From NCBI GenBank assembly GCA_021802505.1, contig JAJZXE010000003.1, positions 8,926 through 72,925 on the forward strand: a DNA stretch of 64,000 bases, in the 5' to 3' direction. The notes beneath the pieces are model-generated. The model had not been told where the DNA came from. It did not search any database and worked only from the letters and a program-made list of their open reading frames with translations. A program made the translations under genes and the position numbers. Shown here one piece after another: positions 335 to 29,905 of the stretch. Origin of the DNA: Nanobdellota archaeon (lineage in GTDB: Archaea > Nanobdellota > Nanobdellia > Parvarchaeales > Parvarchaeaceae). Each line of letters begins with the position of its first letter. The stretch's first letter is position 1.

Positions 335-406
335 GCCCGAGTAGCTCAACGGCAGAGCACTTGGCTGTTAACCAAGGCGTTGCAGGTTCGAATCCTGCCC
401 CGGGCG
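335..406 (+). tRNA. tRNA-Asn (anticodon GUU)
   Basis: Cloverleaf readable by eye: acceptor GCCCGAG/CCCGGGC (one A-C mismatch), anticodon arm CUUGG-CUGUUAA-CCAAG, T arm GCAGG-UUCGAAU-CCUGC. No encoded CCA. Confidence 0.9.
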
Positions 407-407
407 C

Positions 408-1216: not shown

Positions 1217-1227
1217 AATTTATATTA
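1217..1227 (+). promoter_or_regulatory. TATA-like box for the six-gene surface-protein operon
   Basis: AATTTATATTA is centred about 25 nt upstream of ATG 1247. No comparable box occurs at the internal gene junctions. Confidence 0.4.
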
Positions 1228-1246: not shown

Positions 1247-3667
1247 ATGCTAACCAGAAAGGCACAGATAGTCATAGGTATAGGAATCATCATCTTATCC
1301 GCGGCTTTTCTCTTAGTGGGTGTTTATTTTGCCAATCTTCAGGGCTTATTCTTCCAGAACGGAGCGAGGTCACTGCAGTTATTTGCGGATAACATAGGTT
1401 TTTCAATAAATTCACTGTACAGTGCACCCTCCTCAATGAGTATAACACTGGCGGGGAACAATTCACTATGCAGCTGGAATCCTTCTATATCGGCCTATAC
1501 ATGTGCGGGAGGATCAAAAGTCTATAATCTTTCGTATGCCAACGGCCCTACATTAGACGCTGGTAAAAATGTTTTCAGCGTAGCATTATGTTTCATGATA
1601 GGATATGGTTTCGGAGGAGTTGGTGGTTCTACCTCCGGTGCAAAAGAAGGCGTCGATGCAGCCACGCAGGTCTCTACAGAGGTTGCAAAGGATACGGAGA
1701 ACACTCTTGTGCAGACGGGTGAGCAGGCCGCACACGAATTACCAGCGACAGCGATTGAAGATACGGGCCAGAGTGCTGGAGAATCTCCAAGTTTATTGAG
1801 CAGACTCGGAACACGCATAAAAAACGGCTTAATAACCAACATAAAACATCCTTTTATACAGGATTTGCCGGAGGATTCTCTTCTCTCGAGCAGTATGTCA
1901 ACCATAAGAGAGGCCTTAAGAACTTCTTCTGCATTTATACCGGTTGCAGTAGCATCAATGTCAGCTGCATTGGTTGCTGTCCCCATCTTTGAATTATGGT
2001 TTGGAACAAGCAGCAGTACACTAAATACGTATGTAACTAAGGGCATATACATAAACGGCCAGCAAATAGGTGCATTAACAGGGCCGTCAGTTTCAATAAG
2101 CCAGCAGATAGCGGCGGCTTATCTAAACCAGGAGCCTCTGCCGTTCAAATATGCAGCGGCGGACTTTGTATTGCAGCAATACTCTCAGTTATTATCCAGC
2201 GAGCAGACTCTGAATTCTTTGCCGCCCGGACTGGGAAAAGATACCCTGTTGTTGTTTACCGCAAAGCAGATCGCGGTGAAACAGAACGTATTATCAGAGT
2301 TGTCAGCAGGCGCTTCGGCTTCAACAAATCCTTATTCAACACCTACTTCTGGCGTTTCATCTCCTGGAGTTTTAAGCTCGCCAAACTCTTTGGTAGGTTC
2401 AGTTCATTTATCAGCAAACGGGGCCGATCCGCTCCTTTCGATACCCTTTTTCCTCGCACAGAATGCATTTCTTGTTTATGCAAGGACCGCTAGCTGTTTA
2501 AGTATACCGTCACAGCCATTAAACGTTAACAGTTATAATTCTGTTGGGAAGGGGGTTTCATCTTTAACCTCTGAATTTGGTGCGGCAACTACTCTGGTAA
2601 ACATATATACCAAAATAAACAGCATTCTGCCGCTCGGAACATATTTTGTAGGCTATGGCGGGGAGGTTTATCTTAACGGTCAGTCGAGCGGAAGGCCGAC
2701 ACAGGTAACAGCTCCACTAATAACAGATATGAATGATATGTGTGAGTTGGCCCAAACTACTTCTGAACCGGGACAGAATCTCAGAACGATTATACAGCCA
2801 AGCGGAAACGGCTCTATCACTTTTTCATTGTCTCAGGGCCTTTACAACACCCTCTGTTCTTCAAATAATGCGCTGTTCCCGCACACCTTGCAGACAGAAT
2901 TAAACGGCCTTTTGAACGCTAATGCAAGTGATAAAAACATGACTGTTCTTCTTCCACCGGGAGATTCGCTTGCAATCTCGAATACCGGTAAAAACATAGA
3001 TTTATGTATTTATAGCATACTGATAGATTCCTTTGGCTCTCCCGTTATATCTGCCGGTAATTTTAACAGCGCTTCATTTAATGCGACTGAGTTCGGTTCA
3101 CCGGTTTCATGCGTAAATCTTACTAATCTTAGTGGCGGAGCGGTAAATATCGGTATAAGTTCCGGTGAATTAACAGCATTAAACAATGACATGCAGAATA
3201 ACCGGGATTTCTACATAAATAACGGGTCTTTGCTTGGTTTCTCGGTTCCTATAACCGATTTCCCAAATCAAATCACCGCAACCAGTCTCTTAGGTACAAA
3301 CAGTTTCTTATCCGCCGGTAACTTTATAGCGGGAGGGCAGCCCGCAATAAGAAAAGACTTGGGCATAAATTTTCCGGTTGCTTCATTGATAGCTTCTATA
3401 ATAGGAAAGAAGATACCTAAATTACAGGCAGGGATATCGACTTCACTGGACAATTTTTTAATAACGCCCTTGTACCAATTGTCTTCCTCTAATACAAATC
3501 TTTCATATTACCAAACGGATTATGCAAACGTTACGATTGAATTCGGAAGGACAACCGCCGGCGGCGTAACAACCTATAATATCAACAAAGTATTCGATAA
3601 CTTGGTGTTTGGAGTGTATCCAAACAATCTAAATTCGTTTGGAGGTACTTACTTTTCAGGGAGTTGA
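1247..3667 (+). CDS. operon gene 1: 806-aa membrane/surface protein with class III (prepilin-like) signal motif
   Basis: N-terminus MLTRKA/QIVIGIGIIILSAAFLLVGVYF. Two more hydrophobic segments flank an acidic loop. The remainder is Ser/Thr/Asn/Gly-rich with few charges. Confidence 0.75.
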   Translation: MLTRKAQIVIGIGIIILSAAFLLVGVYFANLQGLFFQNGARSLQLFADNIGFSINSLYSAPSSMSITLAGNNSLCSWNPSISAYTCAGGSKVYNLSYANGPTLDAGKNVFSVALCFMIGYGFGGVGGSTSGAKEGVDAATQVSTEVAKDTENTLVQTGEQAAHELPATAIEDTGQSAGESPSLLSRLGTRIKNGLITNIKHPFIQDLPEDSLLSSSMSTIREALRTSSAFIPVAVASMSAALVAVPIFELWFGTSSSTLNTYVTKGIYINGQQIGALTGPSVSISQQIAAAYLNQEPLPFKYAAADFVLQQYSQLLSSEQTLNSLPPGLGKDTLLLFTAKQIAVKQNVLSELSAGASASTNPYSTPTSGVSSPGVLSSPNSLVGSVHLSANGADPLLSIPFFLAQNAFLVYARTASCLSIPSQPLNVNSYNSVGKGVSSLTSEFGAATTLVNIYTKINSILPLGTYFVGYGGEVYLNGQSSGRPTQVTAPLITDMNDMCELAQTTSEPGQNLRTIIQPSGNGSITFSLSQGLYNTLCSSNNALFPHTLQTELNGLLNANASDKNMTVLLPPGDSLAISNTGKNIDLCIYSILIDSFGSPVISAGNFNSASFNATEFGSPVSCVNLTNLSGGAVNIGISSGELTALNNDMQNNRDFYINNGSLLGFSVPITDFPNQITATSLLGTNSFLSAGNFIAGGQPAIRKDLGINFPVASLIASIIGKKIPKLQAGISTSLDNFLITPLYQLSSSNTNLSYYQTDYANVTIEFGRTTAGGVTTYNINKVFDNLVFGVYPNNLNSFGGTYFSGS

Positions 3668-3675
3668 AATAGGAC

Positions 3676-4482
3676 ATGGCATTAGTTGAGATGATGGCGT
3701 TTTTGAATGCAGGGATACTGATAGTTGCATTTGCCCTGCTTTTGGTCGTTTTATCATTCAGTGTCTCTCAAATCAACAGTACGAGTGTATTTGCAAATTC
3801 AGAAGCGGTGGCAACAGGTATAGGAACCAGGCTGATAACCTCTCCGAACTGTTTTGCCTACAAAAATACCATTTCATACTATAATTCGAGTCTGGATGCT
3901 CAGGGCGGGCCTCTTTATTCTTCATCATATACGGAACCGGGGGTAATAGATCTTAACAAGTTTATCGAAAATTACTTTCTTTCGTGCATGCAATATATAT
4001 ATTTTGGAGGGTCGACGGATGTCCCGGCTCTTCAGTCCGATTTAACCGCTGCCACAGGCGTTTCATTGACTCTTGCCGACACACAGGATCCGACCGAACT
4101 CGGCCCGACCGGTTCTTTGTATCTTTCCAATTATAATCAGTTTAATTTCGGAGGCAGTTTTCAACAGACAGAGGCGTTGATACAAAAATACGCCCAGACG
4201 GCAGAGTATGCTGCAATGGGCGTAAGCATGGTTACAAGTCTGGCGGTAATGATAGCTACCGGCGGTGCTGTGCAGTTTAATGTAATTTTAGCAGTGGGAC
4301 AGCAGTCCACTACGGAGATAACGCCGCAGTATGCATTGGCCAGCGTATTCTATTCTGAAAACACCTACACAGAATCTTTTCCCGTAGAGATACAGTTTAC
4401 AAACGCGCAGGGCCAGCCTACTTTTCAGAATAGCGGAGTGTTAAAAATTGCGGTAACATATGGAATTCCACCTTACAGCTAG
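3676..4482 (+). CDS. operon gene 2: 268-aa protein with pilin-type N-terminal helix but no leader
   Basis: Starts M-ALVEMMAFLNAGILIVAFALLLVV, resembling the SALEYMMTYGWAILIIV helix of the 26067 gene. It lies 8 nt after gene 1. A second hydrophobic stretch (MGVSMVTSLAVMIATGGAV) lies in the C-terminal third of the protein. Confidence 0.7.
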   Translation: MALVEMMAFLNAGILIVAFALLLVVLSFSVSQINSTSVFANSEAVATGIGTRLITSPNCFAYKNTISYYNSSLDAQGGPLYSSSYTEPGVIDLNKFIENYFLSCMQYIYFGGSTDVPALQSDLTAATGVSLTLADTQDPTELGPTGSLYLSNYNQFNFGGSFQQTEALIQKYAQTAEYAAMGVSMVTSLAVMIATGGAVQFNVILAVGQQSTTEITPQYALASVFYSENTYTESFPVEIQFTNAQGQPTFQNSGVLKIAVTYGIPPYS

Positions 4483-5041
4483 AAATAGAAAGGGCCAGCT
4501 AACGATGTTAGACCTGGTGTTAGCCCCGCTTGCGGCCGTAGTCCTTGCGGTTCTGGCGTCTGCATTGCTGCACAGTGCCACAGCTAATTTATTGACGGCG
4601 GTTAGTCAGCAGCCCGGTTCATTTTCCTGTAATTTTGCCCTGGATTCTCTTTATAGCACTTATTATATTCATACAGCCGCGGCATTATCACAGCTGGCTT
4701 TGTCAAATCCGAGCCAGTACTCGCTGTCAGAATCGACTAAACAGCAGAGTTTATCCGCCAATTGTAGCGGAGCGTGTACTCCTACCTATAGTTATGTACA
4801 GAGCTATCTCTATAATTCTACTTCTCTCTTTTCTGATTTTATAGGTTATTTCTCTGGTTTTTCCTTTAGTAATTTTAAGGTGTTAACCGGCCAGCAGGCC
4901 GCAACTTTAAGCGCACTGGGCATGCAGGTCTATCTGAATCAGATACCTGCAGGGGTCACCGGAACGACGGAATGCAGCATGCAGGTTTATAATCCGGTGG
5001 ATCCTTCAAGACCGTATACTTTATATGGGGTGATGAACTAA
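4460..5041 (+). CDS. operon gene 3: 193-aa class III signal peptide (pilin-like) protein
   Basis: MEFHLTARNRKG/QLTMLDLVLAPLAAVVLAVLASALL. Overlaps gene 2 by 23 nt. Confidence 0.75.
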   Translation: MEFHLTARNRKGQLTMLDLVLAPLAAVVLAVLASALLHSATANLLTAVSQQPGSFSCNFALDSLYSTYYIHTAAALSQLALSNPSQYSLSESTKQQSLSANCSGACTPTYSYVQSYLYNSTSLFSDFIGYFSGFSFSNFKVLTGQQAATLSALGMQVYLNQIPAGVTGTTECSMQVYNPVDPSRPYTLYGVMN

Positions 5042-8000
5042 TGAACAGGAAAGGGCAGGCGAATATGATTGTTGTCCTTGGCATGGTGGCAGCTACAATA
5101 TATATAATGCTAAATGCCTTTGGATATATAAGCAATGTCGGTCTCAGCTCAAAAATAGAGATAACAGCGCAGAACAGCATATACCAGACGCTTGCACTGA
5201 AGGATTATCTTATCCAGGAGGCAAATTACAACTTTCAGAAGGCCCAGCTTTTCGACGGATTAACGCTGAAGCCCAGTTCCGTCGGTTGTGGCTATATCAA
5301 CACCTCGCAGTCCCTTCCCTTTGTACCTCTGCCGAAGGTTTATTACTGGAGGAATCTGGCCGGCCAGATCTGTCTTCCGAATAATAATCTAATAACCTAC
5401 GGTCTGGAAACACTTTTAAACAAGAAATCATTCGACATAATAAACTCCTCAAACATAGACATACAATCGAATCTTGTCCTTAATTTGTCGAATAGAAATG
5501 GAAATGTATGGTATAATAATTTCTCTGCCCCGTTCCTTTCGGGCAAATACACTTTTTTTTACAACGGATCAGCAGCAACGTTTTCGATATGCGAATGGTC
5601 TAACAGCGGCTGCAGTTATGTCCTTAATGATTCTCCGTTGGGTGTGAATTTCAATATCTCAAATCTAGAGTTTACTTCTCTTCCGCTGCAAAATATAGTC
5701 TCCGGAGTTATATCTCAGTCCAGTTCTGTAAGTGCTTTCTTCACAGACTCAAGCGTTTCACCTTCAAGCCAGTATTCCCTGGTGACTTTTCCGGATGGAA
5801 ACGTTGCGATAATATACACAAATACAACAAACGGTGTAGCCAGTTTTTACCTCACGCCGATGCCCAATCAGAATATTTACACCCTGAACGGTGTTATGGC
5901 TTACGACTCTGCAAACGGTATAACTGATAAAATAGAACTTGTCAATAATTCTGCCAGAGGATTTATCTTTGACGGTGTAAATTACACTTTTTCGGTTTCT
6001 TCGGACGTAAACGGAATATTTTCAATAGCTCCGAGCAATTATAAAATGTTCGGGATCCAGCCAAAGTTTGTGTATTATAAATATATATTGAACAGCATAC
6101 AAAATTCCGGCACGCAGAATCTTCTCTTTCCGAACAACCAGAATATTTACGTCTCGTATTCCGTATTTCCTTTATACTCTCCCCAGGTCTGCGTGAATTA
6201 CAATGAGGGACAGTATAACCTGCAGAATTGCATGACGCTGTCCGATTCCATAACAGGTAATAATTACCTGAGCCAGATAATGCAGCTTGGTATTGCTTTC
6301 GTAAATGAGAGTTTTCCGGTTGGAAACCAGAAAATAGAGGGATTTGCACAGTATGAAATTGATAATTACATATCAAATGCCATAAATGCAGTAAACCTAA
6401 AAACAGTTTCGGTAAACGGCAGACCGAAATATGACTGGTATTCAGCGCTAATACTTGCACTGGGTTCGCCGCAGGGTACGAATTATCTGATTGGCAAGCT
6501 GGCAAGGGTAAAAGAACCGTATTACAGTACTTATATATACAATTGTGAGCAGAACGTTTCTGATATACAGTACTGCAGAAGCCTTTTATCTTCTACACTT
6601 TCGCAGGATATTGTTTCGTTACTGCAGCAGCAGATGCCGCAGGAGTTGAGTTTTCTTTCCGGAACCAATTTTAATATAAATGTGTTGAATCTTTCTGTAA
6701 ATGCCAGTGAACTTCATTCCTGCGTCAATGCAAGTAATTACAGTGTAAAATCAAATTATACCTACTCGGTAAAAAGTGTGCCGGTGAGCGGGAACTATTC
6801 GGAAGAGGTGCTTGGTATACCCATTGCTTTGGATTTCGGCTATCAGAACAGCCTTAATTTAGTGCCGACTGAGTCATGCGGCATACAGAAATCGCCGTAT
6901 TCGACCGGCTATCCGGGATTTTCAGAGGCATTGGTAACAAATAATTTTACTTATATAAATTGCGCTCCGGCAATATCACAGGAGTTTTTAAATCATACAT
7001 GCATTGCCAGTTTAGAGACTTCAAACTCAAATGTTGCGGATTATCTTAATTCCAGCAGCTCCGCAGGGCAGGGAGAATACTGCAGGGAGGAAACAAACGG
7101 GGAGTATTTCTGTCCGTATTATAAAATCTCCAGCTTTTCCTATAAGAACTGGCTTACGAGCAGCAACAGCTGCCCGGATTACTTTGTTATAGACAAGGAA
7201 AATTTCACAACCTCTCAGAGCAATAACAATTACAGATTGGTTTCCGTTTATGGCGGCGGTGCAGATTCGGCTAGTTTATCATTTTACAACCGGACATTTG
7301 CGCTGTACAACGGCTCATTAAATCTGCCTGAAAATTTCAGTTTTAACGTGGGTTTCAATTCAAGCGGCCCGTATGCCGGTGTAGATGCATTCTTCTCCGG
7401 TAACTCTCACTTAACCGGCAATGTTATATCCGCTTCATTTAATTCAGTACAGGACCCCATAGGCATATACAATTATTCCGTATCAACGGATTCATTGTCA
7501 TTATTAAGCGGGTCTAATAATTTTCTTTCGCCGGGCGCAGAAAGTGAACTTAGCTTTGACAGGTATTGCACGGTTAAAACAGGCTGCAACCTGACGGCTT
7601 ACCTTAATTCAAACCTGGAAAGTAATTTTTACAGTAATTCAACCGCCGTTAAATCAAACGTTAATCTATTGGGCGTTTCCACCACCTCAAAGTCCTCCTC
7701 TGATATCATAAGTTATGCCTTTGTAAGTAATTATATTCCGGTTTACAAACCGGTTATAAATCAGCTTGCCTACTCATCAGCAGCCCAGCTGAACCCCTCG
7801 CTTAATGCTTCATTCGGACTTACAACGGACAATAATACATATTTCAACGAGTTTTTAATAAATTCATCAAACTTTTCAGATGCATACCAGCTTGCGGTCT
7901 ACTTAAACAGCAATTTCAATTTCGGATATATGCTGCCGGGTTATATAAAAATATTCGGGGTTTACTCCAATAATGCCGTTTCCCAGTTTTATTGGTGGAA

Positions 8001-8466
8001 TCAGACAGATATACAGAATGGAGGTGTAATCTGGGTTAATCTGACAAACAAGGTACCGGCGGAATTATACATAGTTTATGGACAGGGTGCGGTTTATAAC
8101 GGCAAATTCTCGGACAACGGTTCGGAAGTATTTCCGTTTTTCTATTCTGCAAGCGGAGACAACGCCGCTTTCAATTTTCTCTATCCAAATAATGACCAGC
8201 ACAATTTCAATGCATACTACTCTAATGTAGGTTTAAATCTTTCAAACACAGAACCGGTACCGCCGTATATATACAATTCAACCCTAAACTCATATTATGA
8301 GGAGTTCGCGTGCATTAATGTAAATCCGTTCAAACTAACGCTGTTAAATGCCACATATTCCGCTTATCCTCCAAACTTTAATATAAATGAACTGTATAAT
8401 GATTTTAGCACGTTATATCCAAACCTTACTGTAATTGGAAAGAAGACATATGACAGCTGGCCTTAA
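5041..8466 (+). CDS. operon gene 4: 1141-aa class III signal peptide surface protein with C-terminal DUF2341-like module
   Basis: MNRKG/QANMIVVLGMVAATIYIML. TAATG overlap with gene 3. The C-terminal segment FYWWNQ...VIWVNL...LYIVYGQG...VFPFFY parallels the DUF2341 region of the 26067 gene. Confidence 0.8.
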   Translation: MNRKGQANMIVVLGMVAATIYIMLNAFGYISNVGLSSKIEITAQNSIYQTLALKDYLIQEANYNFQKAQLFDGLTLKPSSVGCGYINTSQSLPFVPLPKVYYWRNLAGQICLPNNNLITYGLETLLNKKSFDIINSSNIDIQSNLVLNLSNRNGNVWYNNFSAPFLSGKYTFFYNGSAATFSICEWSNSGCSYVLNDSPLGVNFNISNLEFTSLPLQNIVSGVISQSSSVSAFFTDSSVSPSSQYSLVTFPDGNVAIIYTNTTNGVASFYLTPMPNQNIYTLNGVMAYDSANGITDKIELVNNSARGFIFDGVNYTFSVSSDVNGIFSIAPSNYKMFGIQPKFVYYKYILNSIQNSGTQNLLFPNNQNIYVSYSVFPLYSPQVCVNYNEGQYNLQNCMTLSDSITGNNYLSQIMQLGIAFVNESFPVGNQKIEGFAQYEIDNYISNAINAVNLKTVSVNGRPKYDWYSALILALGSPQGTNYLIGKLARVKEPYYSTYIYNCEQNVSDIQYCRSLLSSTLSQDIVSLLQQQMPQELSFLSGTNFNINVLNLSVNASELHSCVNASNYSVKSNYTYSVKSVPVSGNYSEEVLGIPIALDFGYQNSLNLVPTESCGIQKSPYSTGYPGFSEALVTNNFTYINCAPAISQEFLNHTCIASLETSNSNVADYLNSSSSAGQGEYCREETNGEYFCPYYKISSFSYKNWLTSSNSCPDYFVIDKENFTTSQSNNNYRLVSVYGGGADSASLSFYNRTFALYNGSLNLPENFSFNVGFNSSGPYAGVDAFFSGNSHLTGNVISASFNSVQDPIGIYNYSVSTDSLSLLSGSNNFLSPGAESELSFDRYCTVKTGCNLTAYLNSNLESNFYSNSTAVKSNVNLLGVSTTSKSSSDIISYAFVSNYIPVYKPVINQLAYSSAAQLNPSLNASFGLTTDNNTYFNEFLINSSNFSDAYQLAVYLNSNFNFGYMLPGYIKIFGVYSNNAVSQFYWWNQTDIQNGGVIWVNLTNKVPAELYIVYGQGAVYNGKFSDNGSEVFPFFYSASGDNAAFNFLYPNNDQHNFNAYYSNVGLNLSNTEPVPPYIYNSTLNSYYEEFACINVNPFKLTLLNATYSAYPPNFNINELYNDFSTLYPNLTVIGKKTYDSWP

Positions 8467-8467
8467 T

Positions 8468-11400
8468 ATGGAAGAACGCAGTAGAAAAATAGCAGAGATC
8501 GGACTTGTTTTATTGATATTTCTGCTTTCTTTTTTAATCGTAAATAAGAGCACCCAGATCTTTAGAGGCAGTACTACAAATAATGCATCGTCCGCTGCGT
8601 TTGTGGCTGCAAATGCGTCAGGTATTAACAGTTTTTCGATTCCGTTTGCTTCAGGATCTTCTTCCAGTCTTGTAACAAAGAATGAATTTTTAAACACTTC
8701 CTCAAATTCGCAGTATTACAGTAATATCTTCTTTAATGAGAAATTTTATCCTGGGAATGTTTCATCAAATTCAAATACTTATTCATGTTCTGCAGTCAAT
8801 ACAATCATTGCACCACACTTATGTTTTAGTTTTGCCACTCTTTTTTCATGTGGAGGTGGGCCGACCACCGCTGATTTCAGCAATTTGGTCGGATACATAG
8901 GTTTTCCGCAGCAAGATAATAATTTTCCCAATAATGGTGGCACAAATTATTCAAATCTTTATTCGGCTGTAAGCAACGGCAGCTCCCAAAATGTTTATCA
9001 ACTGCCATCCTCTACCTTTGAATATCAGAATTTCATAAACTGGAGTGCGTCTTCAATTCGTTCATACGGTTTTAGTTCTTCGAATGGAAACCCTTATCTT
9101 TATGCAATAAACCACTCTTTTACGGGTTATCCTACTCTTTCCGGCAGCATCCCTAGCAGCACTCTTATAATACCGGCGGTGTCCTGCGGTTCAACTTTTA
9201 TAAATAACTACATAAATTATCCTGGATTTATCGGTACTCTTTATAATATATCCACTCTAAGCGGTTTTACTCCCTCGGTTTATTTAGCTTCAAAGGATGA
9301 AAACGGATTCGGCGCTTATTATGCTTTCGGCTATCTCTTATCATTAGGTAACCTACCCTGGACAGGCAGTTTTAATTCGCTCCTTGCTTACCAGATACAG
9401 TCGATAAATCCTGCGTTTAGTTATACGATGCCGACGGAGGACTATGCCGAATTTCCAAAAGGAAACAGAGGAGATATGCAGTATGTAAATTCCTCGAATG
9501 AGTTCCTCACGCCCTTACAGATGTCGTACTATGAAAGTGGAAATACCTCAAACGTTTCTATATATGTTTCCAATACGAGTATCTCATCCATAGCGGAGGT
9601 TTCTTCCACAAGCCAGGTGTGCAGCAGGTTCGGGCCGCATGGCGTGTGTAATAGCTATACACCGGAGGTAAAAACTGCCAACAGCGCCGATACATTTACT
9701 GATCCAAATCTGGAGGGTGTTTATTATCCGAATTATGCAAACGGAATTTATGTTCAGTTTAGGACGGACGGCATATTTCCGATATGCGCCTGGAATTCCA
9801 CCACTTCAAACACTTTAAGCAGCTGTACTTTTGAAAAACCTTCCACGATAAACAACATCTCTTATCAAAGACTCTGGCTTTCAAATAATATAAAGAATAA
9901 CCAGCTTTACAATTCCAATTTTGCGCCGGGTCAATCCTCTTCTCCTGAAAATAGTTTTACCCTGACAGCTTTGGATAGTTTCTGTTTTTATGGGGAAAAT
10001 TTCAATACGGCAAACGGCGTTTATACCTCGCCGAGTTATTCCAGAATAATACCCCCGACTTCCACTGAGAATTATACCTCCGCGATAGGAACCTGCAATG
10101 CGTTCTTCAACAGTACTAACTGTTTCAGCGGCCGTGCAAGCCAGTACCTTAACTTTCAGGACGGAATATTTGCAAATAATATTGCATGTACATCAACAGG
10201 AATACATGCAAAGAATGTCACCGATGCGTGGATAAGATCCATATACGTTGCGAACAATGCGGGGGATTTCTGCGGAGATTTCCTGGGTCAGAAAAATCCT
10301 TCAGATCCCCAGGCAAATTCTACCGTGTTTCTTCAAACATTGAACAATAACTGCCCGTCGTTTAATTCGAATTCTTCATCGGTTAATCTGGTTATAACCG
10401 TGAAGAACGTAGGAAATACCCAAATAACAAATCCATACCTTGTCGCTTTATACGGAAACAACAATTTAAGCAATATATTTTATAACTCCCAGAACAGTCA
10501 GCATGTAACCTACTTATTATATCAGGATTTTCTATCTTCGATGAAGGCAACGACCGGAATCATACAGGTTGATTACAACAACAATTTTGATACCAATATG
10601 TATGTTTTTGATGCCGGCCATCCGTTGAATCCGATACCGATTGAATCACTGTTTTCATCGGGCCAACAGTACGAAAACGGGCCTTTCAATAATTCTCTTT
10701 TAGGGATGTGGATATATTCCAATGGCGCGCCTAATAATGTGATAAGAACTTCCAATACTATACTCTCGCATTCCACGGCCGGAACATCCGCTGTCCCGGT
10801 TATACAGCCAAACGGAACCGCAACATTTACCCTAGAAGTTCCGATGTCTTTATTTAAGGCACTGCTGTCCGGTAAATACAATCTAAGTGTTTTCTTTGGT
10901 AATACCTTCAATGTCACATGGAATACGCTCTCAAGCACTTCTCCACAGACGGCACTTTCCAATCCCGGAACTCCTGTTACTGTTAATCCGTTGGTTTCAT
11001 CCTCCGATACAAATGCTTCGCAGACCCATAATAACGAGATAATAACCGGTGGAAAAGGTGCTCCCTCACCCTTATGGCAGTACATCGTAAGCTACGATTT
11101 CAATTTTTCCAAAGCGCCTTTCAATCGCATAAGCATATACAATGACAACCTCTCTATAAACGTTTCGTCGGTTAATTCAACTTCTAGTGCATTGAATGTA
11201 ACTGTAAACCCTTCCGTCTCTGTTCTGAACGGAAGCGGTTCCTATAAGCTTGGATTAAACCAGCTTAAAGGGTCAGCAATATCCTGTTTTGCCTCTCCTG
11301 ACAACGTACAGGACTTCGGAGTATTCTGGTCAAAGCAGATAGTCTCCCCATCGAATCTTAATTACGCCCTGTCAAATAGCATCTATTCCGATAACCAGCA

Positions 11401-14400
11401 GCAGGCAAGCAATGTACTCATAACCAGCTGGAGAGGGATACTGTTTATGCCCTATTCGGATCAAGTCGCATTAAACTATAATAACCTGCCGCATTACTAT
11501 CCTGCTACTTCCTCTTTCCAGATAGAAACTCCTACGCTTAATTCTACGTCCAAGAATTTCAATTATGAGGCATTTGATTACTTTGGAAGCGGTACCGGAG
11601 GAGGTTTATTTTCCAATTTATCTGACTTGTACGGTTCTCTAAACTCCTCGGTTACCTCTTTTCCGGTAAGCCTTCCAAACAGTTCATTGACATTCCATCT
11701 TACTTCCAACTCGCTCGTAAGTGATCCGTCAATTTTAAGAATAGTGGGAACGGATCTTTTAGTTAACTATTCGGTTTTTTCAAATAGATCATTTACATTC
11801 TCTCTGGTTACTAAAGGTTCAGTACAGTGCACATACAGCGAAAGTACCTCGTCCAACGGTACTTTTGAATACGGTTCAGGAGGGTCCTCCTGCTTAAACA
11901 GTGCGGTCATAAACAGTTCTTACATCAATATATCCTCAAAATACGGGCCGTTCTTTGCTGACATGTACAATAATTCAAATCTGAACATGTCAAATGAGAC
12001 GGCAGGCGGAACAGTTCTTATGGCTGGAAATGAAACCTTGTCGAAACAGAATAAGGGCGGTTTGTTTACCATAACTTTACCGATAAATACGAGCACAAAC
12101 AACGGAATAGCACTGGTATTTTCGGTGGTTCCATTAACACGGCAGCTTTATAACTCCGATGTTTACCTTTACAATCTAAACGGCACGCCTTTCAACTGCA
12201 ACATACTCAATGATTTCAACAATACCGGGAATCTCGGCGTTTCTCAGATAGGCAGGGGAAAGTATTTCCTTCCAAACGGCACGATGATGTGCAATCTTAC
12301 GGGTGATTTCACCTATCTGAGGGCAGTTTTTATAAATCGTTCAAACAATGCCTATCTTGGCAGCGGAGACATACAATCCGGGGTAGTAATCTCAAATATC
12401 AGCGGTTCCTCGGCAAAAGACGAGCTAAATATAAGCATAAACGGGATTCCGGTAAATGCGCAAAACGCGAACATATTGCCAGGAAAGTACTCCTCCTGCA
12501 GTTTAACCGATAAAACCATCTATAACGGCATATTAAGGTACCCTACCGGCTGTGATAACCTTTCGTATTCCCTAATAACTTTTGATTATAATGTTAACGG
12601 GAGCATACTGCCGGAATCCGCCTTAATCTCTCCGAAAAATTATTACAGGCATTATCCTCAATTTTTATATTCCGGTCCATCAGTTGTATCGACCAATCCA
12701 ACGGCCGAATATAATCTTACGCTGCCGGCGAGCAGCGCAGAGAATGTACCCATACAATTTAGCATTCCCAATAATTTCGGAGGCTGCAATAATATTATAC
12801 TGACCACTCAGAATCCTTATCCATATGCCGAGGTTCCTTATCAGGTCATTTTATCCGGTTCGCAGTCCTGTGATTATGTTTTCGTCGGGTCCGGAGGAAA
12901 CAGTTATTCTGTATTCGTGAGCAGTTCTCCTGCAGTCGGTTATCCAGACAATTGGATGAGCTATAACGCTACGCAGTACAATGTTCAATTGTCAACATCC
13001 CTCTTCAATGGGGATCTTATAAGCAATTGCCGGTCCGGCTTCGGTCCGTGCCTGGATTCCTTTTCAGTCAATGGAAAAGACCTCGGGAGCCTTCTTTTCA
13101 ACAACGTTTCAACGTCCTCCGCTACCATCTCTCAATCACTCAAAGGCCCGGTTGAGGACTGTTTCACTGTAAGTTATTCATCCTCGCAAACCGTTGAATT
13201 TCCTGAAACCGGTTTCGGAGGTATAAATTATGCAAATAACAAGATATACCAGACAGCCGCTCCTTCCCAATCCATAGCCAGTGATTATTGTTTCTATGCG
13301 GGTTCTCCGGTAATAACCGACTCTATTACGGCGAGGGGCTCTCCTATAACGTTTAAGGTCCAAAACCAGCTTATATCCAATTTTTCATACCTGAAAAACA
13401 GCAATCTGAAGAGCTTTTACGTGCCTGCCGCAATAAATGTAGGTTATTCATCGTACGGCAGTGTGAATGTCAGCACGAGTAAACAGATATACTACAATAT
13501 CAGCAGTGCAGATTTACTTACAAAGTGCATAAATTACACGATATCTGGCGCAAATGCGAGTGCTCTGGGTATAAATCAGATTACTCCCATAAATATAAAT
13601 TCAAATGATATACTGACCAACGAGCAGCTTTACTGTTTATATGGCGGCAGTCCATCCTATACCACGCAGCTTCCGTTAAGCGGCACAAACAATGCAAATT
13701 CATCAACTTCAGTCGGCTTTGCTTATCAGCCTGGGAATTACACGGCAGGAACCGGGACATTATATGATTCATGCATCATCCCGCCAAAACTTAAGGTGTC
13801 TTCTCCAGCTGTTTTTTATCTGAATGGAAAAGCTTCCGACTATAATCCTTCAAACAGCGGCGAAAACTATACTGCCAGCCACTCTGCAAATTCAAGCGGT
13901 CTCGAGATGCTTTACAGCCCGGGTTCCAGCGTGTTTATAAACAAGTGCGCTCCCAATAGTACAATCTTAAGTTACAGCGCATGTACAAAGCCTGTGAATA
14001 TTGTGCCTCAGAACGGATCCTACAACAGCTTGGAGGCATTGCCGACCGGAAGTAATGGGAATCTCTCTTTTGGAGGCGGTTGTTTTATAGGCAGTATAGG
14101 AACCACAAATTACAAATGTGCACCGACAGATGGCGAGCTATCCTTCTCGAATACCACGGGAAAAAGTTCTTCCTCTACATCGGTTTCAATTTCACAGGTC
14201 ATATTAAATTCTACGTCGGCTCCAACAACTTCATTTTCTGTTTCGTTTGATTGCAGTGTATCCGCCAGTAACAGCACAGTTACCAAGCTGTTTTCGTGCA
14301 GCTACCCAAATTCGCAGACATCCGGTGCGTGTTCTGCGAGTGTTTCTTATAAGCAGATAAACTCCACCGCCTACAATATAATTTCTACCTGTTCGGTTTC

Positions 14401-17400
14401 TTCAGTAAAAGGCTTTACCGTCAAGGCAGATACAGTAAAAATAAGCAAGCTTAGTATAACAGGCGGACAGTCCGAGACAACAGGTTTAATATCCGATTTT
14501 ATATGCGGCAATACGACGAATGTGATAAGCAAAAACATTCCTAACGGCTGGAACTGGAAGCCTTACTCCACTGCCGGTGCTATAAATCCCGCTCCGAGTA
14601 CGAACAAGGCAGGGGTTGCGGAAGTCGGCGGTTGTGAAGCCGGAAGGGACACATTTGAGACACAACAACCAACTATTTCAATAACAACACCCAGTAGTAA
14701 TACTTTTCAATATAGTTACTCCTGCCAAAGCGGTTACTCCGGCACAATAACGGCATGCAGTCAGCCGACTTCCCTTCCTCAGTCAAAGCTAGAATTCTCT
14801 TCAAATAACAAGTGTGGTATTGCAAATATAACACTTATAAATACTACTTTTCAATCCAGTTCTGTAAACGGGAAAAATAACGGCGGCGAAGCTACAAGCT
14901 GTAATCCTTTCAGCAAATCCGGTTTTTCACAGCCGACAGTACAGGATAACTGCATAGCTTACCATAACCCTGCTTTCAATTCAACCACCGCTTCCTATGA
15001 ACTTCAATATGCGAATTCAAGCGGTTACGGCATAGGCATGGGGGTACTCGGCGGAAGTTATAACTTAAATATTTCGATTCCAAACAATAAACAGCAGAAC
15101 TCTGTAAAAGATGCATATCTGACAGGTTTATCGGAATCACAGATTGAAAGCGGCAATAACATTTTGACAGACTTACTTCCAACTTCTCTGCTGGAGTCGA
15201 ACCTTCCGAGCAAGGCCTTATCCATATCAGCTGCATACTCCTATGACATGCTTAATATACTCATGCTTCAGAATCCCTCGTTGGGCGTGACCGGCATACC
15301 TGGTTTTATAAACGGCAGTATACTGGATTATGCGCTAAGTATATTTACGGGAGGAACCTCCGGAAATTGTGCTCCGCCGTACAATGTAAGCGGTGACGGC
15401 ATATTTAAATTGGGGGAGGGAGAACTGTGTTCTGGTAAAACACTTCCATCAAGTTACAAGGAGGGCGTTTTTCTCTCTCTGGGAACTCTGAACGAAGGAC
15501 TGCATTCCCTGCAGTTTTACAGCATAGGTAACTCTACAAACGAAGCGCAGCCGTCCGTAAACGTCTTCGACAGTGTGGGAAACGCCGTGAACCTAAACAG
15601 CGCGTGTTCAAACGGCAACAAGAGAGTATTCACCTCTGTTTATAAAGGCGGGACGTGGAGTTTTAATATGACTTCGGATCAGCAGTGCAACCCTGTAAAC
15701 AATAAATTATACGGTTATATTGTCAATTGCCTTTATCAAACGCCGGGCAATTCCACTTATACAATAACTTCTCAGTACTATCTTGCGTATAACCTCCCGA
15801 CAATCTGGAATATAAGCTATACTCTCTTGGTTTCTCCAAAGAGCTATGAAGTCGTGCCTGCTCCAGTCTATCAGATAAACTACTCAACAGGTTCTATATT
15901 GACGCTGCAGCAGCCCAATAAGACGGTGTTTATAGAGAAAGGATTACCGGCAGGATACAGATGGACCGTTGATTATAACGGTGTAAGCAGAAACTCCATT
16001 TCAAATGAAATTTACTTTTACTCGGTTGGAACACATTCATTTACGGTTCCCGTACTGCAGAATTCGTCCATAACACCGGATTGTTATACAAGATACACCC
16101 CTGCTCCGGGTGCCGGCCAGGCAACTTCAGGCACTACAACCTATATACAATTTTCTTCCAATACAACCTGCTATAGTTACTTTACAGAGAGCGGTTTGCC
16201 ATCTGGGTTTAACTGGAATGTAACTTATGACGGAGTTACAAAAGTTTCCGGGTCAAGCAACATAGAATTTATAACTATAAATCCGGGAGGTTACGGCGGC
16301 AACTTTTCTTATTCCGTTCCGGATATCAAAACTACCTCAGCCGCCTGCACTGAAATTTACATTCCTTCGCCGTCTTCTGGTTATTTAGCGGCTGGAACAA
16401 ATCAGAGCGTTGTATTTACCTTAACTTCGGATACCTGTATAACTACATTTGATGAAAATGGTCTGCCTAGTGGCCATGCCTGGACTGTAGACTACAATGG
16501 CACTACTGAAACTTCGTCTACTGACAAAATAACATTTACCTCTGCCCCGGGCACGCCGTCTTATTCTGTATCCGCGCCTTCTAATTCATCAGCGACTTTG
16601 GATTGCACCACTTATTACTTCCCGTCGCCTTCTTCAGGACATTTAACTGCCGGAACATCTCTATCCATATCATTTTCATCTAAAACGCATTGTACCACAA
16701 CATTCACTGAAACAGGCCTGCCGTCTAATGTCAAATGGTACACAACTTATGATAAAGATACTAGCAGTGCCCAGTCTCCGAATAAAATAGTATTTTCAAA
16801 GAATACGACTGGTACTGCAATTCCTTCATATTCTTATTCTGTGCAGAAATTGACGGCTTCTTCAAGTTCATTGGACTGTTCAACCACTTACACCCCTTCG
16901 CCATCCTCCAGCAGTTCACTTAATGCCGGATCCAGCATTAAAATAACATTTACGACATCTACATCCTGCGTAACTACTTTCAAGGATTCAGAACTGAACT
17001 CAGGTTATAATTGGGCAGTATACGGTGGCTCTCAGTCATCAAGCGGCTCGACAAGCAGTAATCTCCAGCTAACTACTTCTAGCGGGACATATTCTTATTC
17101 TGCATCTATAACTACAAACGGTATAGACTGTTATTCCTCAGGATCGTTTTCGGCAGGCTCTACCATCACTCCGAGTTTTACCTGTCAAACAGAATTCTAT
17201 GTAAGTCAGTATCATTCTGTGGATTCCGGCGCAACATGGTCAGTTAGCTATAATGGGAGTTCGGAATCGCAGCCTAGCCCCAATGACAATATCTTCTTTT
17301 ATGAATCTTCAAACAGTTCATTAAAGATACCGTTCACTGCAGGTTTCAGTGTAAGTAACATAGGCACCTGGACAGAGTATCCACACCCTGGTTCTGGCAG

Positions 17401-17446
17401 TTTAATAAGCGGAGGCACGCAGGCAATCTGGTATGGTTATTCGTAA
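8468..17446 (+). CDS. operon gene 5: giant N-terminally anchored Ser/Asn/Thr-rich surface protein (about 2992 aa from ATG 8468; 3003 aa from TTG 8435)
   Basis: Uninterrupted 9 kb ORF. N-terminus MEERSRKIAEIGLVLLIFLLSFLIV, with the ATG 1 nt after the gene 4 stop. Dense N-x-S/T sequons, many Cys, very few K/R/D/E. A CARDB-like stretch (VITVKNVGNTQITNPYLVALYG). Six C-terminal tandem repeats. Confidence 0.85.
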   Translation: MEERSRKIAEIGLVLLIFLLSFLIVNKSTQIFRGSTTNNASSAAFVAANASGINSFSIPFASGSSSSLVTKNEFLNTSSNSQYYSNIFFNEKFYPGNVSSNSNTYSCSAVNTIIAPHLCFSFATLFSCGGGPTTADFSNLVGYIGFPQQDNNFPNNGGTNYSNLYSAVSNGSSQNVYQLPSSTFEYQNFINWSASSIRSYGFSSSNGNPYLYAINHSFTGYPTLSGSIPSSTLIIPAVSCGSTFINNYINYPGFIGTLYNISTLSGFTPSVYLASKDENGFGAYYAFGYLLSLGNLPWTGSFNSLLAYQIQSINPAFSYTMPTEDYAEFPKGNRGDMQYVNSSNEFLTPLQMSYYESGNTSNVSIYVSNTSISSIAEVSSTSQVCSRFGPHGVCNSYTPEVKTANSADTFTDPNLEGVYYPNYANGIYVQFRTDGIFPICAWNSTTSNTLSSCTFEKPSTINNISYQRLWLSNNIKNNQLYNSNFAPGQSSSPENSFTLTALDSFCFYGENFNTANGVYTSPSYSRIIPPTSTENYTSAIGTCNAFFNSTNCFSGRASQYLNFQDGIFANNIACTSTGIHAKNVTDAWIRSIYVANNAGDFCGDFLGQKNPSDPQANSTVFLQTLNNNCPSFNSNSSSVNLVITVKNVGNTQITNPYLVALYGNNNLSNIFYNSQNSQHVTYLLYQDFLSSMKATTGIIQVDYNNNFDTNMYVFDAGHPLNPIPIESLFSSGQQYENGPFNNSLLGMWIYSNGAPNNVIRTSNTILSHSTAGTSAVPVIQPNGTATFTLEVPMSLFKALLSGKYNLSVFFGNTFNVTWNTLSSTSPQTALSNPGTPVTVNPLVSSSDTNASQTHNNEIITGGKGAPSPLWQYIVSYDFNFSKAPFNRISIYNDNLSINVSSVNSTSSALNVTVNPSVSVLNGSGSYKLGLNQLKGSAISCFASPDNVQDFGVFWSKQIVSPSNLNYALSNSIYSDNQQQASNVLITSWRGILFMPYSDQVALNYNNLPHYYPATSSFQIETPTLNSTSKNFNYEAFDYFGSGTGGGLFSNLSDLYGSLNSSVTSFPVSLPNSSLTFHLTSNSLVSDPSILRIVGTDLLVNYSVFSNRSFTFSLVTKGSVQCTYSESTSSNGTFEYGSGGSSCLNSAVINSSYINISSKYGPFFADMYNNSNLNMSNETAGGTVLMAGNETLSKQNKGGLFTITLPINTSTNNGIALVFSVVPLTRQLYNSDVYLYNLNGTPFNCNILNDFNNTGNLGVSQIGRGKYFLPNGTMMCNLTGDFTYLRAVFINRSNNAYLGSGDIQSGVVISNISGSSAKDELNISINGIPVNAQNANILPGKYSSCSLTDKTIYNGILRYPTGCDNLSYSLITFDYNVNGSILPESALISPKNYYRHYPQFLYSGPSVVSTNPTAEYNLTLPASSAENVPIQFSIPNNFGGCNNIILTTQNPYPYAEVPYQVILSGSQSCDYVFVGSGGNSYSVFVSSSPAVGYPDNWMSYNATQYNVQLSTSLFNGDLISNCRSGFGPCLDSFSVNGKDLGSLLFNNVSTSSATISQSLKGPVEDCFTVSYSSSQTVEFPETGFGGINYANNKIYQTAAPSQSIASDYCFYAGSPVITDSITARGSPITFKVQNQLISNFSYLKNSNLKSFYVPAAINVGYSSYGSVNVSTSKQIYYNISSADLLTKCINYTISGANASALGINQITPININSNDILTNEQLYCLYGGSPSYTTQLPLSGTNNANSSTSVGFAYQPGNYTAGTGTLYDSCIIPPKLKVSSPAVFYLNGKASDYNPSNSGENYTASHSANSSGLEMLYSPGSSVFINKCAPNSTILSYSACTKPVNIVPQNGSYNSLEALPTGSNGNLSFGGGCFIGSIGTTNYKCAPTDGELSFSNTTGKSSSSTSVSISQVILNSTSAPTTSFSVSFDCSVSASNSTVTKLFSCSYPNSQTSGACSASVSYKQINSTAYNIISTCSVSSVKGFTVKADTVKISKLSITGGQSETTGLISDFICGNTTNVISKNIPNGWNWKPYSTAGAINPAPSTNKAGVAEVGGCEAGRDTFETQQPTISITTPSSNTFQYSYSCQSGYSGTITACSQPTSLPQSKLEFSSNNKCGIANITLINTTFQSSSVNGKNNGGEATSCNPFSKSGFSQPTVQDNCIAYHNPAFNSTTASYELQYANSSGYGIGMGVLGGSYNLNISIPNNKQQNSVKDAYLTGLSESQIESGNNILTDLLPTSLLESNLPSKALSISAAYSYDMLNILMLQNPSLGVTGIPGFINGSILDYALSIFTGGTSGNCAPPYNVSGDGIFKLGEGELCSGKTLPSSYKEGVFLSLGTLNEGLHSLQFYSIGNSTNEAQPSVNVFDSVGNAVNLNSACSNGNKRVFTSVYKGGTWSFNMTSDQQCNPVNNKLYGYIVNCLYQTPGNSTYTITSQYYLAYNLPTIWNISYTLLVSPKSYEVVPAPVYQINYSTGSILTLQQPNKTVFIEKGLPAGYRWTVDYNGVSRNSISNEIYFYSVGTHSFTVPVLQNSSITPDCYTRYTPAPGAGQATSGTTTYIQFSSNTTCYSYFTESGLPSGFNWNVTYDGVTKVSGSSNIEFITINPGGYGGNFSYSVPDIKTTSAACTEIYIPSPSSGYLAAGTNQSVVFTLTSDTCITTFDENGLPSGHAWTVDYNGTTETSSTDKITFTSAPGTPSYSVSAPSNSSATLDCTTYYFPSPSSGHLTAGTSLSISFSSKTHCTTTFTETGLPSNVKWYTTYDKDTSSAQSPNKIVFSKNTTGTAIPSYSYSVQKLTASSSSLDCSTTYTPSPSSSSSLNAGSSIKITFTTSTSCVTTFKDSELNSGYNWAVYGGSQSSSGSTSSNLQLTTSSGTYSYSASITTNGIDCYSSGSFSAGSTITPSFTCQTEFYVSQYHSVDSGATWSVSYNGSSESQPSPNDNIFFYESSNSSLKIPFTAGFSVSNIGTWTEYPHPGSGSLISGGTQAIWYGYS
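15923..17446 (+). repeat. six tandem protein-level repeats (about 75-90 aa each) at the C-terminus of the giant protein
   Basis: Repeat heads are FIEKGLPAGYRWTVDYNG, YFTESGLPSGFNWNVTYDG, TFDENGLPSGHAWTVDYNG, TFTETGLPSNVKWYTTYDK, TFKDSELNSGYNWAVYGG and EFYVSQ..GATWSVSYNG. They start near 15929, 16178, 16444, 16699, 16972 and 17190. Confidence 0.8.
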
Positions 17447-18011
17447 ATCTGTGATATTTTTAATAGTTGTAGTTTTGATAGCAGCGGTGCTTTTTATAGT
17501 GCTTAAAACTCAGGTTTTTGCACAAAGCAAGTTTAAAGTGTTCAATCTAAATAATGTTTATTTTTCCTACCCCAAAAACTGGTCTATTGTCTCCTATCAT
17601 TATAATGCAACTTCCAAGTTGACCTTTAATGCCCTGCTGCTTCCGACTAATCTGGTCAGTACCTTGTCATATCCTAATGGCTCAATTAGATCACTGCCAA
17701 ATACAACGAATTTCTCAGAGATTTCAATAATTATATTAAAGAACAAATCTCTTTCAGAGTTATATCCCCTGTACATTTTTAATTATACTTACTTGGTGAA
17801 TAATACTGTTCTAGACGGTTATAGGGGAGCAGCGGCTGTTGAAGAAATAAATGCATCCAGCCTTTTGCCGAAAAGCGAAGCTATCTCTTATATCTCAAGC
17901 GGCGGCGGTTATGGTTATTCAGTGGGGGCATTCTTAACATTAGGTTTCAATAAAAGTACATACGGAGCGCTTACCGAAATTATAAAAACTTTTAAGTACC
18001 CACTATCTTAA
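17433..18011 (+). CDS. operon gene 6: 192-aa N-terminally anchored or secreted protein
   Basis: MVIRKSVIFLIVVVLIAAVLFIVLKTQVFAQS. Overlaps the giant gene by 14 nt. Confidence 0.65.
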   Translation: MVIRKSVIFLIVVVLIAAVLFIVLKTQVFAQSKFKVFNLNNVYFSYPKNWSIVSYHYNATSKLTFNALLLPTNLVSTLSYPNGSIRSLPNTTNFSEISIIILKNKSLSELYPLYIFNYTYLVNNTVLDGYRGAAAVEEINASSLLPKSEAISYISSGGGYGYSVGAFLTLGFNKSTYGALTEIIKTFKYPLS

Positions 18012-18523: not shown

Positions 18524-18595
18524 GTCAGGGTAGTATAACGGCATTACACCGCCCTCATGAGGCGGAAATTGTGGGTCCGAATCCCATCCCTGACA
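18524..18595 (+). tRNA. tRNA with CAU anticodon (elongator Met or Ile2)
   Basis: Acceptor GUCAGGG/CCCUGAC, anticodon arm CCGCC-CUCAUGA-GGCGG, T arm GUGGG-UCCGAAU-CCCAU. G1-C72 argues against an initiator. Confidence 0.85.
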
Positions 18596-29684: not shown

Positions 29685-29905
29685 TAAACTTTCCTATTAG
29701 ATCAAGTTGACAAACATACAATCAAAACATTTAAATAAAAAACATAAGCATTCATATGTTTGACGGCTGCAAAGACAATAACAAAAAGAAATCATTAAAT
29801 GGTAGTTCCCATATATATTCATTTATATTACTTTCTTTTAAGACTGCTTCCTTCAGTAAGAGAGACAATAAAGTCAATCGATTCCGTATAAAATATAAAT
29901 ATCAA

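Follow-up and report, generated by a model that had tools for sequence, protein, structure and literature searches.

Archaeal type IV pilus (T4P) loci often hold sets of minor pilins together with large Cys-rich adhesin-like proteins, and the pilin sets may be encoded away from the ATPase (PMC4858521; bioRxiv 10.64898/2026.04.22.720090). The arrangement recalls FimU–PilV–PilW–PilX and PilY1 of Pseudomonas aeruginosa, and Streptococcus sanguinis has modular type IV pilins, PilB and PilC, onto which adhesive domains are grafted (PMC8179133, PMC9934059). Here we describe a locus of comparable form in a 64,000-nucleotide stretch of a Nanobdellota archaeon of the order Parvarchaeales (contig JAJZXE010000003.1, positions 8,926–72,925), referred to as the window. 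Five consecutive genes, termed A to E, end in gene E, which encodes a giant protein of the exported type. The reading that we put forward, at slightly less than an even chance, is that E is the adhesive distal subunit on a minor-pilin complex resembling a type IV filament and serving host attachment.

The locus shares with the P. aeruginosa and archaeal sets (PMC4858521; bioRxiv 10.64898/2026.04.22.720090) the order of an operon of prepilin-type proteins of varied size followed by a far larger exported protein that is not a prepilin. E is rich in Cys, like archaeal T4P-associated adhesins, and A–E lie apart from ATPase and platform genes, as do minor-pilin and adhesin loci. D, and possibly A, join a class III N-terminus to a very large C-terminal ectodomain and in this follow the logic of module-bearing pilins such as PilB and PilC; the S. 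sanguinis modules (vWA, lectin) measure about 300–400 residues, whereas those found here span 800–1,100 residues and have no recognizable fold, and E is no canonical pilin. Unlike PilY1, E retains an N-terminal transmembrane (TM) helix and is about three times larger, and the E cluster has neither sequence homology nor detectable structural homology to PilY1, DUF2341 or any pilin family. In contrast to minor-pilin sets, only three of the four partners of E obey the class III rule, and the link to filaments is a predicted one. The kind of system is already known and represents no new principle, because large glycosylated surface or adhesin-like proteins beside pilin genes have been described in archaea. 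The E family itself is not a known one: an orphan, annotated only as hypothetical, limited to Parvarchaeales and, unlike most giant adhesins, non-repetitive for 2,485 residues.

Gene E lies in a single uninterrupted open frame on the + strand (8435–17446 in the open reading frame (ORF) listing). Its ATG at 8468 is 1 nt past the stop of gene D and gives a product of 2,992 residues; an alternative ATG at 8450, chosen by public gene callers for a near-identical protein, would give 2,998. The hydrophobicity profile has one segment only, at residues 8–26, with no C-terminal TM segment, in agreement with a first-pass annotation of this DNA, made by a model from the letters alone, which had described an uninterrupted 9-kb frame with one N-terminal hydrophobic anchor. 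AlphaFold2 (AF2) places a helix at residues 2–32 (predicted local distance difference test, pLDDT, 52–60), and an acidic residue stands at the start of the TM helix in 8 of 10 orthologs. Of 25 independent species-level assemblies, 24 preserve the frame whole and in colinear form, the 2010 ARMAN-4/-5 scaffolds among them, and several public contigs carry near-copies of the E of the window (P0001 cluster). An assembly chimera, for which the first-pass annotation had asked that the frame be checked, is excluded on these grounds. The broader suspicion that E is a chimera, a pseudogene or a chance open frame draws its only support from the one exception among the 25 genomes, locus L030 (comparison loci carry L numbers, individual proteins P numbers), in which E is split into two ORFs; the intact assemblies, the near-identical copies and the purifying selection described below leave it a negligible probability. 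E is thereby shown to be a real, selected and conserved gene of the exported type, enriched in sequons and with mostly invariant Cys.

Genes A–E constitute one conserved, translationally coupled operon with E as its last and largest member; the first-pass annotation had picked out E as the likely payload of an operon, and it is indeed the largest of the five products. Intergenic spacing ranges from −26 to +17 nt, except for D–E gaps of 23–70 nt in four distant loci. The order A-B-C-D-E, with E fifth, is invariant in the ten loci compared gene by gene and in every species locus (of 25) with enough flanking sequence. Orthologs have about 800–1,000 residues for A, 266–271 for B, 187–198 for C and 1,127–1,211 for D. 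The cluster occupies 16.2 kb, about 1.5% of a genome of ~1 Mb, and the 9-kb gene E makes up more than half of it. A single strong TM helix, at the N-terminus, is predicted for each of the five. Pfam and NCBIfam matched no family to any of them, and cross-comparison revealed no paralogy among the five families.

The type IV connection comes from the N-termini. A FlaFind-like rule, requiring [KRDE][GA][ALIFQMVED][ILMVTAS] at the N-terminus followed by a hydrophobic stretch, matches only A, C and D among the 47 ORFs of the window. Alignment of C gives the class III signal peptide [KR][GA]↓Q[LIV]T[MLI][LI]D (arrows mark the cleavage point) in 10 of 10 orthologs, and D has [KR][GA]↓QAN[MIF]I, likewise in 10 of 10, at 44–80% identity among C and D orthologs. 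In A, the consensus N-terminus x-[KRN]-[AGT]-Q-[IV]-V-I-G is approximately kept in the 8 full-length orthologs. The protein behind this N-terminus has a small conserved domain containing Cys, a hypervariable acidic, Ala-rich segment whose length differs greatly among orthologs of 803–998 residues, and a conserved C-terminal domain; the hypervariable part, residues ~125–230, is probably disordered, and such a charged stretch is unusual for an exoprotein of an acidophile. In B, the N-terminus M-[AG]-L-x-[EQD]-x-M-[AS]-F leads straight into the TM helix, and a second segment, weakly hydrophobic and rich in Gly and Ala, lies at about residues 181–207. A DUF2341 protein encoded 9 kb downstream of E begins with KS↓QSALEY, a textbook class III signal, and the organism therefore uses the class III export route.

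Composition places E among the exported proteins. Ser accounts for 16.4% of its residues, Asn for 10.5%, Thr for 9.2% and Tyr for 6.2%. The rarity of Lys, Arg, Glu and Asp that had been noticed by eye is confirmed by the counts: Lys and Arg together reach 3.7% and Asp and Glu 5.0%, against 13.9% and 12.8% in a background of 25 non-surface genes of the same window (charged residues in total, 8.7% versus 26.7%). This charge-poor, Ser/Thr/Asn-rich make-up is common to all exported proteins of the window (A–D and the DUF2341 protein) and is not peculiar to E. Cys is enriched, with 60 residues (2.0% versus 0.55% in the background), mostly invariant over 25 orthologs and often spaced 9–30 residues apart; most C-terminal repeats contain one Cys pair ~29 residues apart, so the picture of a Cys-studded protein with recurring pairs was accurate. 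From these cysteines we infer disulfides in E.

There are 99 N-x-S/T sequons in E, or 3.31 per 100 residues, compared with 0.70 in the non-surface genes of the window. Shuffles of its own composition yield 76.0 ± 7.4 (z about 3.1–3.3), and there are 77 copies of the mirror motif S/T-x-N. Sequons outnumber mirror motifs in 25 of 25 orthologs (mean 97.9 versus 70.3) with no excess at neighbouring spacings, and of the 99 sequons, 39 recur in 80% or more of 24 homologs. E thus exceeds its compositional expectation by a real but modest margin, about 30%, and the sequon-dense protein of the first-pass annotation survives in that tempered form; the first 250 residues hold nine sequons, against its count by eye of about ten in some 270, and the density falls in the last 500 residues. 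E shows the signature of an N-glycoprotein, a sequon excess over both composition and mirror controls that is conserved among orthologs, and is very probably N-glycosylated; no AglB oligosaccharyltransferase is encoded in the 64-kb window. Together with its source among acidophilic Parvarchaeota of acid mine drainage, this matches the earlier description of an exported, acid-adapted glycoprotein. An excess over composition is also found in D, in F, the gene following E, and in an MMPL transporter (36208–38493, − strand), with z values from 3.1 to 4.6 when E is included, and is absent from A, B, C and the DUF2341 protein (z −0.1 to −0.8). A comparison of forward with mirror motifs, made for families A–E, agrees, with an excess in D (40 forward sequons versus 26 mirror motifs, in a protein with 18 Cys) and E and none in A–C. 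This division fits D and E as exposed subunits and A–C as buried ones.

E is built from a long non-repetitive core and a short repetitive end. In an alignment of 25 sequences, residues ~100–2500 are colinear and almost without gaps, with a mean column identity of 44%, and indels are limited to the last ~500 residues. Residues 2201–2485 form the most conserved module, in which there are an invariant His (H2346), Asp/Glu residues and Cys, and whose model has a low-confidence helical patch at about residues 2210–2295 followed by a beta part containing Cys. Self-comparison detects repeats at residues 2486–2992 only, with the motif F-x-E-x-G-L-P-S-G-x-x-W-x-V-x-Y-x-G ... C...Y-x-P-S-P-S-S-G...C, and the copy number of this repeat differs among orthologs. 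AF2 models of two 1,200-residue tiles (residues 1–1200 and 1451–2650), built from alignments of 10 sequences, have mean pLDDT values of 32 and 40; the only confident part is the C-terminal repeats, which are all-beta at pLDDT 66–85 and predicted to be immunoglobulin (Ig)-like beta-sandwiches.

Homology searches left E an orphan. Pfam gave nothing usable for the whole protein or for ten 400-residue tiles at an E-value ≤5, and NCBIfam gave no domain at an E-value ≤1. Foldseek comparison of the second model with the PDB found no match at an E-value ≤1e-3, the best being weak, generic tandem Ig-like domains, and PDB profile searches with full-length E, three sub-regions, C and D returned only chance-level matches (an antibody heavy chain, eL24 and a BIR domain). 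Pfam, NCBIfam and PDB profile searches brought up neither a catalytic family nor an enzyme of solved structure, which agrees with the earlier remark that no catalytic motif is visible. Pfam also detected no DUF2341 domain, no PilY1 C-terminal beta-propeller and, tiles included, no surface-layer (S-layer) domain; Pfam and NCBIfam detected no SPEARE-type domain (serine protease, adhesion or restriction endonuclease). The stretch at residues 639–663 (nucleotides 10382–10456) that had been likened to a CARDB/Ig strand pattern did not hold up: no CARDB (PF07705) or Ig match appears there at an E-value ≤5 on 400-residue tiles, no PDB profile matches it and AF2 confidence is below 50. The sole Ig-type Pfam match in E, Big_13 with an E-value of 0.14, lies outside these residues.

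The ~85-residue repeat has no Pfam model and is widely shared. Arrays of the E type occur in 342 other archaeal surface proteins of 350–900 residues (E-value ≤1e-3) from Parvarchaeota, Thermoplasmata and Nanopusillus, in company with DUF2341, DUF1214, beta-propellers and beta-helices. An identity with a ‘thermopsin-associated’ repeat or the InlB B-repeat (Flg_new_2) was considered and dropped, because related proteins have only single Flg_new_2 matches, at other places than the repeat, and the repeat is not accompanied by a thermopsin domain. Some orthologs reach 3,376–4,021 residues through extra C-terminal material (P0025, P0026 and P0147; loci L004, L005, L027 and L033), and the extension of the distant ortholog P0026 includes an added YncE/lactonase-type beta-propeller; the distal end of E therefore accepts additional modules.

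The family is confined to Parvarchaeales and has no Pfam, NCBIfam or PDB relative. Its 26 full-length homologs (2,817–3,857 residues, 39–100% identity) are labelled only ‘hypothetical protein’ and come from Candidatus Parvarchaeota or Ca. Acidifodinimicrobium mancum. With each GTDB species represented by a single genome, E was found in 25 genomes, with orthologs of about 2,550–4,020 residues, and its carriers include Ca. Parvarchaeum acidiphilum ARMAN-4 and Ca. P. acidophilus ARMAN-5. The range of D is equally narrow: a profile search for its family gave 40 orthologs, all from Parvarchaeota and all annotated as hypothetical. When a hidden Markov model of E residues 1500–2484 was run against 1.84 billion representative proteins, 19 were found, of which 18 were orthologs or fragments. 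The nineteenth, P0158, an acidic protein of 439 residues with no assigned function, gave a weak partial match to E residues ~2307–2492 (E-value 1e-5), the only similarity of module 2201–2485 outside the E family. P0158 and its metagenomic companion P0160 (439 and 723 residues, rich in Asp and Glu) appear to come from a non-acidophilic source. As they share only residues ~2307–2492 with E, this portion of the module may predate the family of Parvarchaeales. IMG/VR contains no relative of E on viral contigs, and a viral origin is unsupported.

Ratios of non-synonymous to synonymous substitution rates (dN/dS), calculated by the Nei–Gojobori method for seven ortholog pairs, are comparative only because dS is near saturation; read in that way, they are 0.05–0.17 for core residues 71–2200, 0.02–0.05 for module 2201–2485 and 0.10–0.57 for the C-terminal repeats. 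Residues 1–2485 are under strong purifying selection (dN/dS 0.02–0.15), and the repeats evolve faster. In the L010/L034 pair, dS of the repeat cassette is 0.27–0.36 against 1.65–2.1 for the rest of E, about six-fold lower, which suggests a recent recombinational exchange of the cassette between the two lineages.

In the reading proposed here, E would be an extracytoplasmic glycoprotein of ~320 kDa that only Parvarchaeales possess, anchored in the membrane in type II (N-in) orientation and made with A–D in fixed proportion from one translationally coupled operon. Because three of these partners, A, C and D, begin with class III signal peptides of the prepilin type, A–D are proposed to form a minor-pilin-like complex, which would be assembled by type IV machinery encoded elsewhere in the lineage (VirB11-type ATPase, TadC and A24 peptidase). 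Metagenome-assembled genomes of Parvarchaeota encode VirB11, TadC and A24 peptidases (PMC7779479), and pilin genes have been reported in Parvarchaeales (PMC10134863). By analogy with FimU–PilVWX and PilY1, and with archaeal minor pilins and their adhesins, this complex would display E as its large non-pilin adhesin. Its N-terminal helix would dock to the membrane or to pilin helices, its 2,400-residue core, disulfide-stapled and glycan-shielded, would serve as an acid-stable shaft or scaffold, and the recombining Ig-like cassette at the membrane-distal end would touch the surface of the host (Thermoplasmatales). The C-terminus behaves as a tip might be expected to: its repeat number varies, its dN/dS is higher, it carries a recombination signal and its repeat is common among archaeal surface proteins. 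Contacts between ARMAN cells and Thermoplasmatales involve pili-like fibres and Velcro-like densities (PMC4110969), with which the proposal would agree. Assembly with type IV filament machinery, location at a tip and binding to the host are what we infer from this pattern.

Several observations weigh against that proposal. E fails the FlaFind-like rule, with inconsistent matches among its orthologs and no steady [KR][GA] cleavage site; B is without a leader, and A breaks the rule in 4 of 8 orthologs. The pilin, archaellin and class III models Class_IIIsignal, Arch_flagellin and arch_flag_Nterm matched none of A–E, even with 60-residue N-termini at an E-value ≤10, and profiles of C or D matched no pilin in the PDB. 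Neither an ATPase nor a TadC/FlaJ protein nor a prepilin peptidase is encoded within ±10 kb in 34 loci or in the 64-kb window, and filament machinery in the source genome is presumed from literature on relatives. Non-pilus surface proteins also bear class III signals, as in the Sulfolobus bindosome (PMC4858521). The strong conservation of the E core and its synteny with housekeeping genes are atypical of adhesins. Since no structure could be predicted for E, the shaft-and-tip geometry is conjecture.

The main rival reading, which we consider unlikely, is that of a wall protein. Held by its N-terminal helix, E could be an S-layer-like canopy or ‘sheath’ protein that spans and makes up the smooth ~30-nm ARMAN wall, with A–D as bindosome-like class III partners in anchoring or assembly and not as parts of a fibre. 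E is present in all Parvarchaeales examined and is syntenic among housekeeping genes, its core is under strong purifying selection, and it is adapted to acid and dense in sequons; the walls of ARMAN cells measure ~30 nm and have no recognized S-layer protein (PMC4110969). For Parvarchaeota as a whole none is known, and the S-layer proteins of other DPANN archaea are orphan, Ig-rich and sequon-rich (bioRxiv 10.1101/2023.10.27.564410; 10.1101/2021.04.28.441871); some large proteins associated with type IV filaments (TFF) look S-layer-like (bioRxiv 10.64898/2026.04.22.720090). As a sequon-heavy, beta-rich lineage orphan with Ig-like repeats, E does resemble S-layer and canopy proteins such as SlaA/SlaB of Sulfolobales, NEQ300, Micr_00292 and MJ1_0160. 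It departs from them in mass (320 kDa versus roughly 100–200 kDa), in its 60 conserved Cys, in an anchor that is N-terminal rather than C-terminal or partner-mediated, in its operon with pilin-like proteins and in having no S-layer domain. A Cys content of 2% at 320 kDa contrasts with an S-layer norm of 40–200 kDa and few sulfur amino acids (10.1101/2021.04.28.441871). The place of E as the fifth of five tightly coupled genes in one operon points to a stoichiometric complex rather than a mass-expressed lattice monomer, and a variable, recombining distal cassette is more typical of ligand-contacting proteins.

The same gaps in the type IV case could mean that the machinery plays no part: E would then be a stand-alone membrane-tethered adhesin or receptor-binding protein, its neighbours plain signal anchors and the whole a five-protein surface complex. 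The absence of T4P machinery from every neighbourhood examined, the unmatched pilin models, the lack of a class III motif in E and B and the single strong N-terminal TM helix of each protein all speak for this, yet we rate it as decidedly unlikely, since an invariant Q at position +1 after [KR][GA] in all C and D orthologs, at their level of divergence, is hard to explain in its terms, among the proteins of the window the motif is peculiar to A, C and D, and unlinked pilin sets are common in archaea (PMC4858521). Least probable of the functional readings, and very improbable, is that E acts as an extracellular enzyme, toxin or nutrient scavenger, degrading polysaccharide or protein or forming pores on the host, with a catalytic domain too divergent to detect. 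Module 2201–2485, with the lowest dN/dS in the protein, its invariant H2346, and its Asp/Glu residues and Cys, looks core-like, its C-terminal part recurs alone in an unrelated 439–723-residue protein, and giant DPANN proteins such as SPEARE join enzymatic with adhesive domains (PMC6642349); set against this, no catalytic family or solved enzyme appeared at any threshold used, and the composition and architecture of E are those of structural surface proteins. E is comparable to the giant proteins of DPANN and candidate phyla radiation (CPR) organisms, among them SPEARE of Ca. Nanohaloarchaeum antarcticus (PMC6642349) and the nanohaloarchaeal giants (PMC10266531), in that its gene takes up about 1% of a ~1-Mb symbiont genome and host contact is presumed. 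Unlike the SPEARE mosaics of protease, adhesion and nuclease domains, it has none of these, is non-repetitive for 2,485 residues and is unrelated in sequence.

The features discussed are collected in Table 1. Beyond the operon, E lies among archaeal housekeeping genes (split RpoB, RpoA'/A'', LonB, RIO1, an intein-containing RtcB and an ADP-forming acetyl-CoA synthetase). Gene F is an accessory of close relatives only: it is present in L009 and L010, replaced in L002 by a 418-residue Kelch-like protein and absent from L001, L007 and L008. Its class III signal makes the DUF2341 protein a PilY-like pilin-adhesin, and its gene sits in a low-GC (0.35) segment of ~5.5 kb between AAA_14/DUF4143 ATPase genes at 24616–25899 and 28194–29447; L010 and L001 lack the segment at the syntenic place, which gives it the look of a variable insertion. 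The RtcB tRNA ligase (32399–35392, − strand) has 997 residues including the intein, and its intein-free orthologs in L001, L007 and L010 have 486–489. Near the end of the window an IS605 OrfB/TnpB-like gene (62368–63600, + strand) encodes OrfB_IS605 and a Cas12f1-like TNB domain. An Hjc-like ORF has its mechanical start at 18557, within the tRNA-Met gene, and therefore probably begins further downstream in reality.

Table 1 Coordinates of the A–E operon, the parts of E and other features of the 64-kb window
Feature	Position	Strand	Remarks
TATA-box-like element tttatatta	1219..1227	+	20–28 nt before the ATG of gene A; read from sequence; putative operon promoter
Gene A	1247..3667	+	806 aa; class III-like signal peptide MLTRKA↓QIVIGIGIIIL
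Gene B	3676..4482	+	268 aa; 266–271 aa across all loci
Gene C	4460..5041	+	193 aa, pilin size; overlaps B by 23 nt
Gene D	5041..8466	+	1,141 aa; start overlaps the stop of C
Gene E	8468..17446	+	2,992 aa, 319.8 kDa, pI 5.1; giant exported-type protein
Sole TM helix of E	8489..8545	+	Residues 8–26; short basic leader before the helix
Non-repetitive ectodomain core of E	8675..15922	+	About residues 70–2485; near gap-free alignment of 25 orthologs
Most conserved module of E	15068..15922	+	Residues 2201–2485; column identity 72–83%
C-terminal repeat array of E	15923..17443	+	Six ~85-aa units, residues 2486–2992; from self-similarity
Gene F	17433..18011	+	192 aa; sequon-rich; N-terminal TM helix; overlaps the end of E by 14 nt
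DUF2341 protein	26067-27479	+	470 aa; class III signal MRLTHKS↓QSALEYMMTYGWAILIIVIV
tRNA-Asn(GTT)	335-407	+	
tRNA-Met(CAT)	18524-18595	+	
tRNA-Ser(TGA)	29905-29990	-	

Parvarchaeota (ARMAN-4/-5) are uncultivated symbionts with genomes of ~1 Mb, in which surveys have found almost no candidate cell–cell interaction proteins; such proteins seemed to be missing from their metagenome-assembled genomes (PMC7779479). The A–E cluster defines five orphan families, with about 2,400 residues that yielded neither to homology searches nor, in the modelled parts, to AlphaFold2. Being lineage-wide, exported and tied by its signal peptides to type IV filaments, it is a concrete candidate for an attachment apparatus. 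A bolder and more doubtful extension is that A–E make up an unrecognized host-attachment organelle of Parvarchaeales, a fibre or pseudopilus derived from type IV systems, with three to four orphan pilin-like proteins to prime it and a 320-kDa glycoprotein as its cap, with core folds outside the structure databases and a tip cassette that sets the Thermoplasmatales host. If this were true, the cluster would supply the ‘missing’ cell–cell interaction proteins of ARMAN-4/-5 and would explain the pili-like and Velcro-like contacts seen by cryo-electron tomography.

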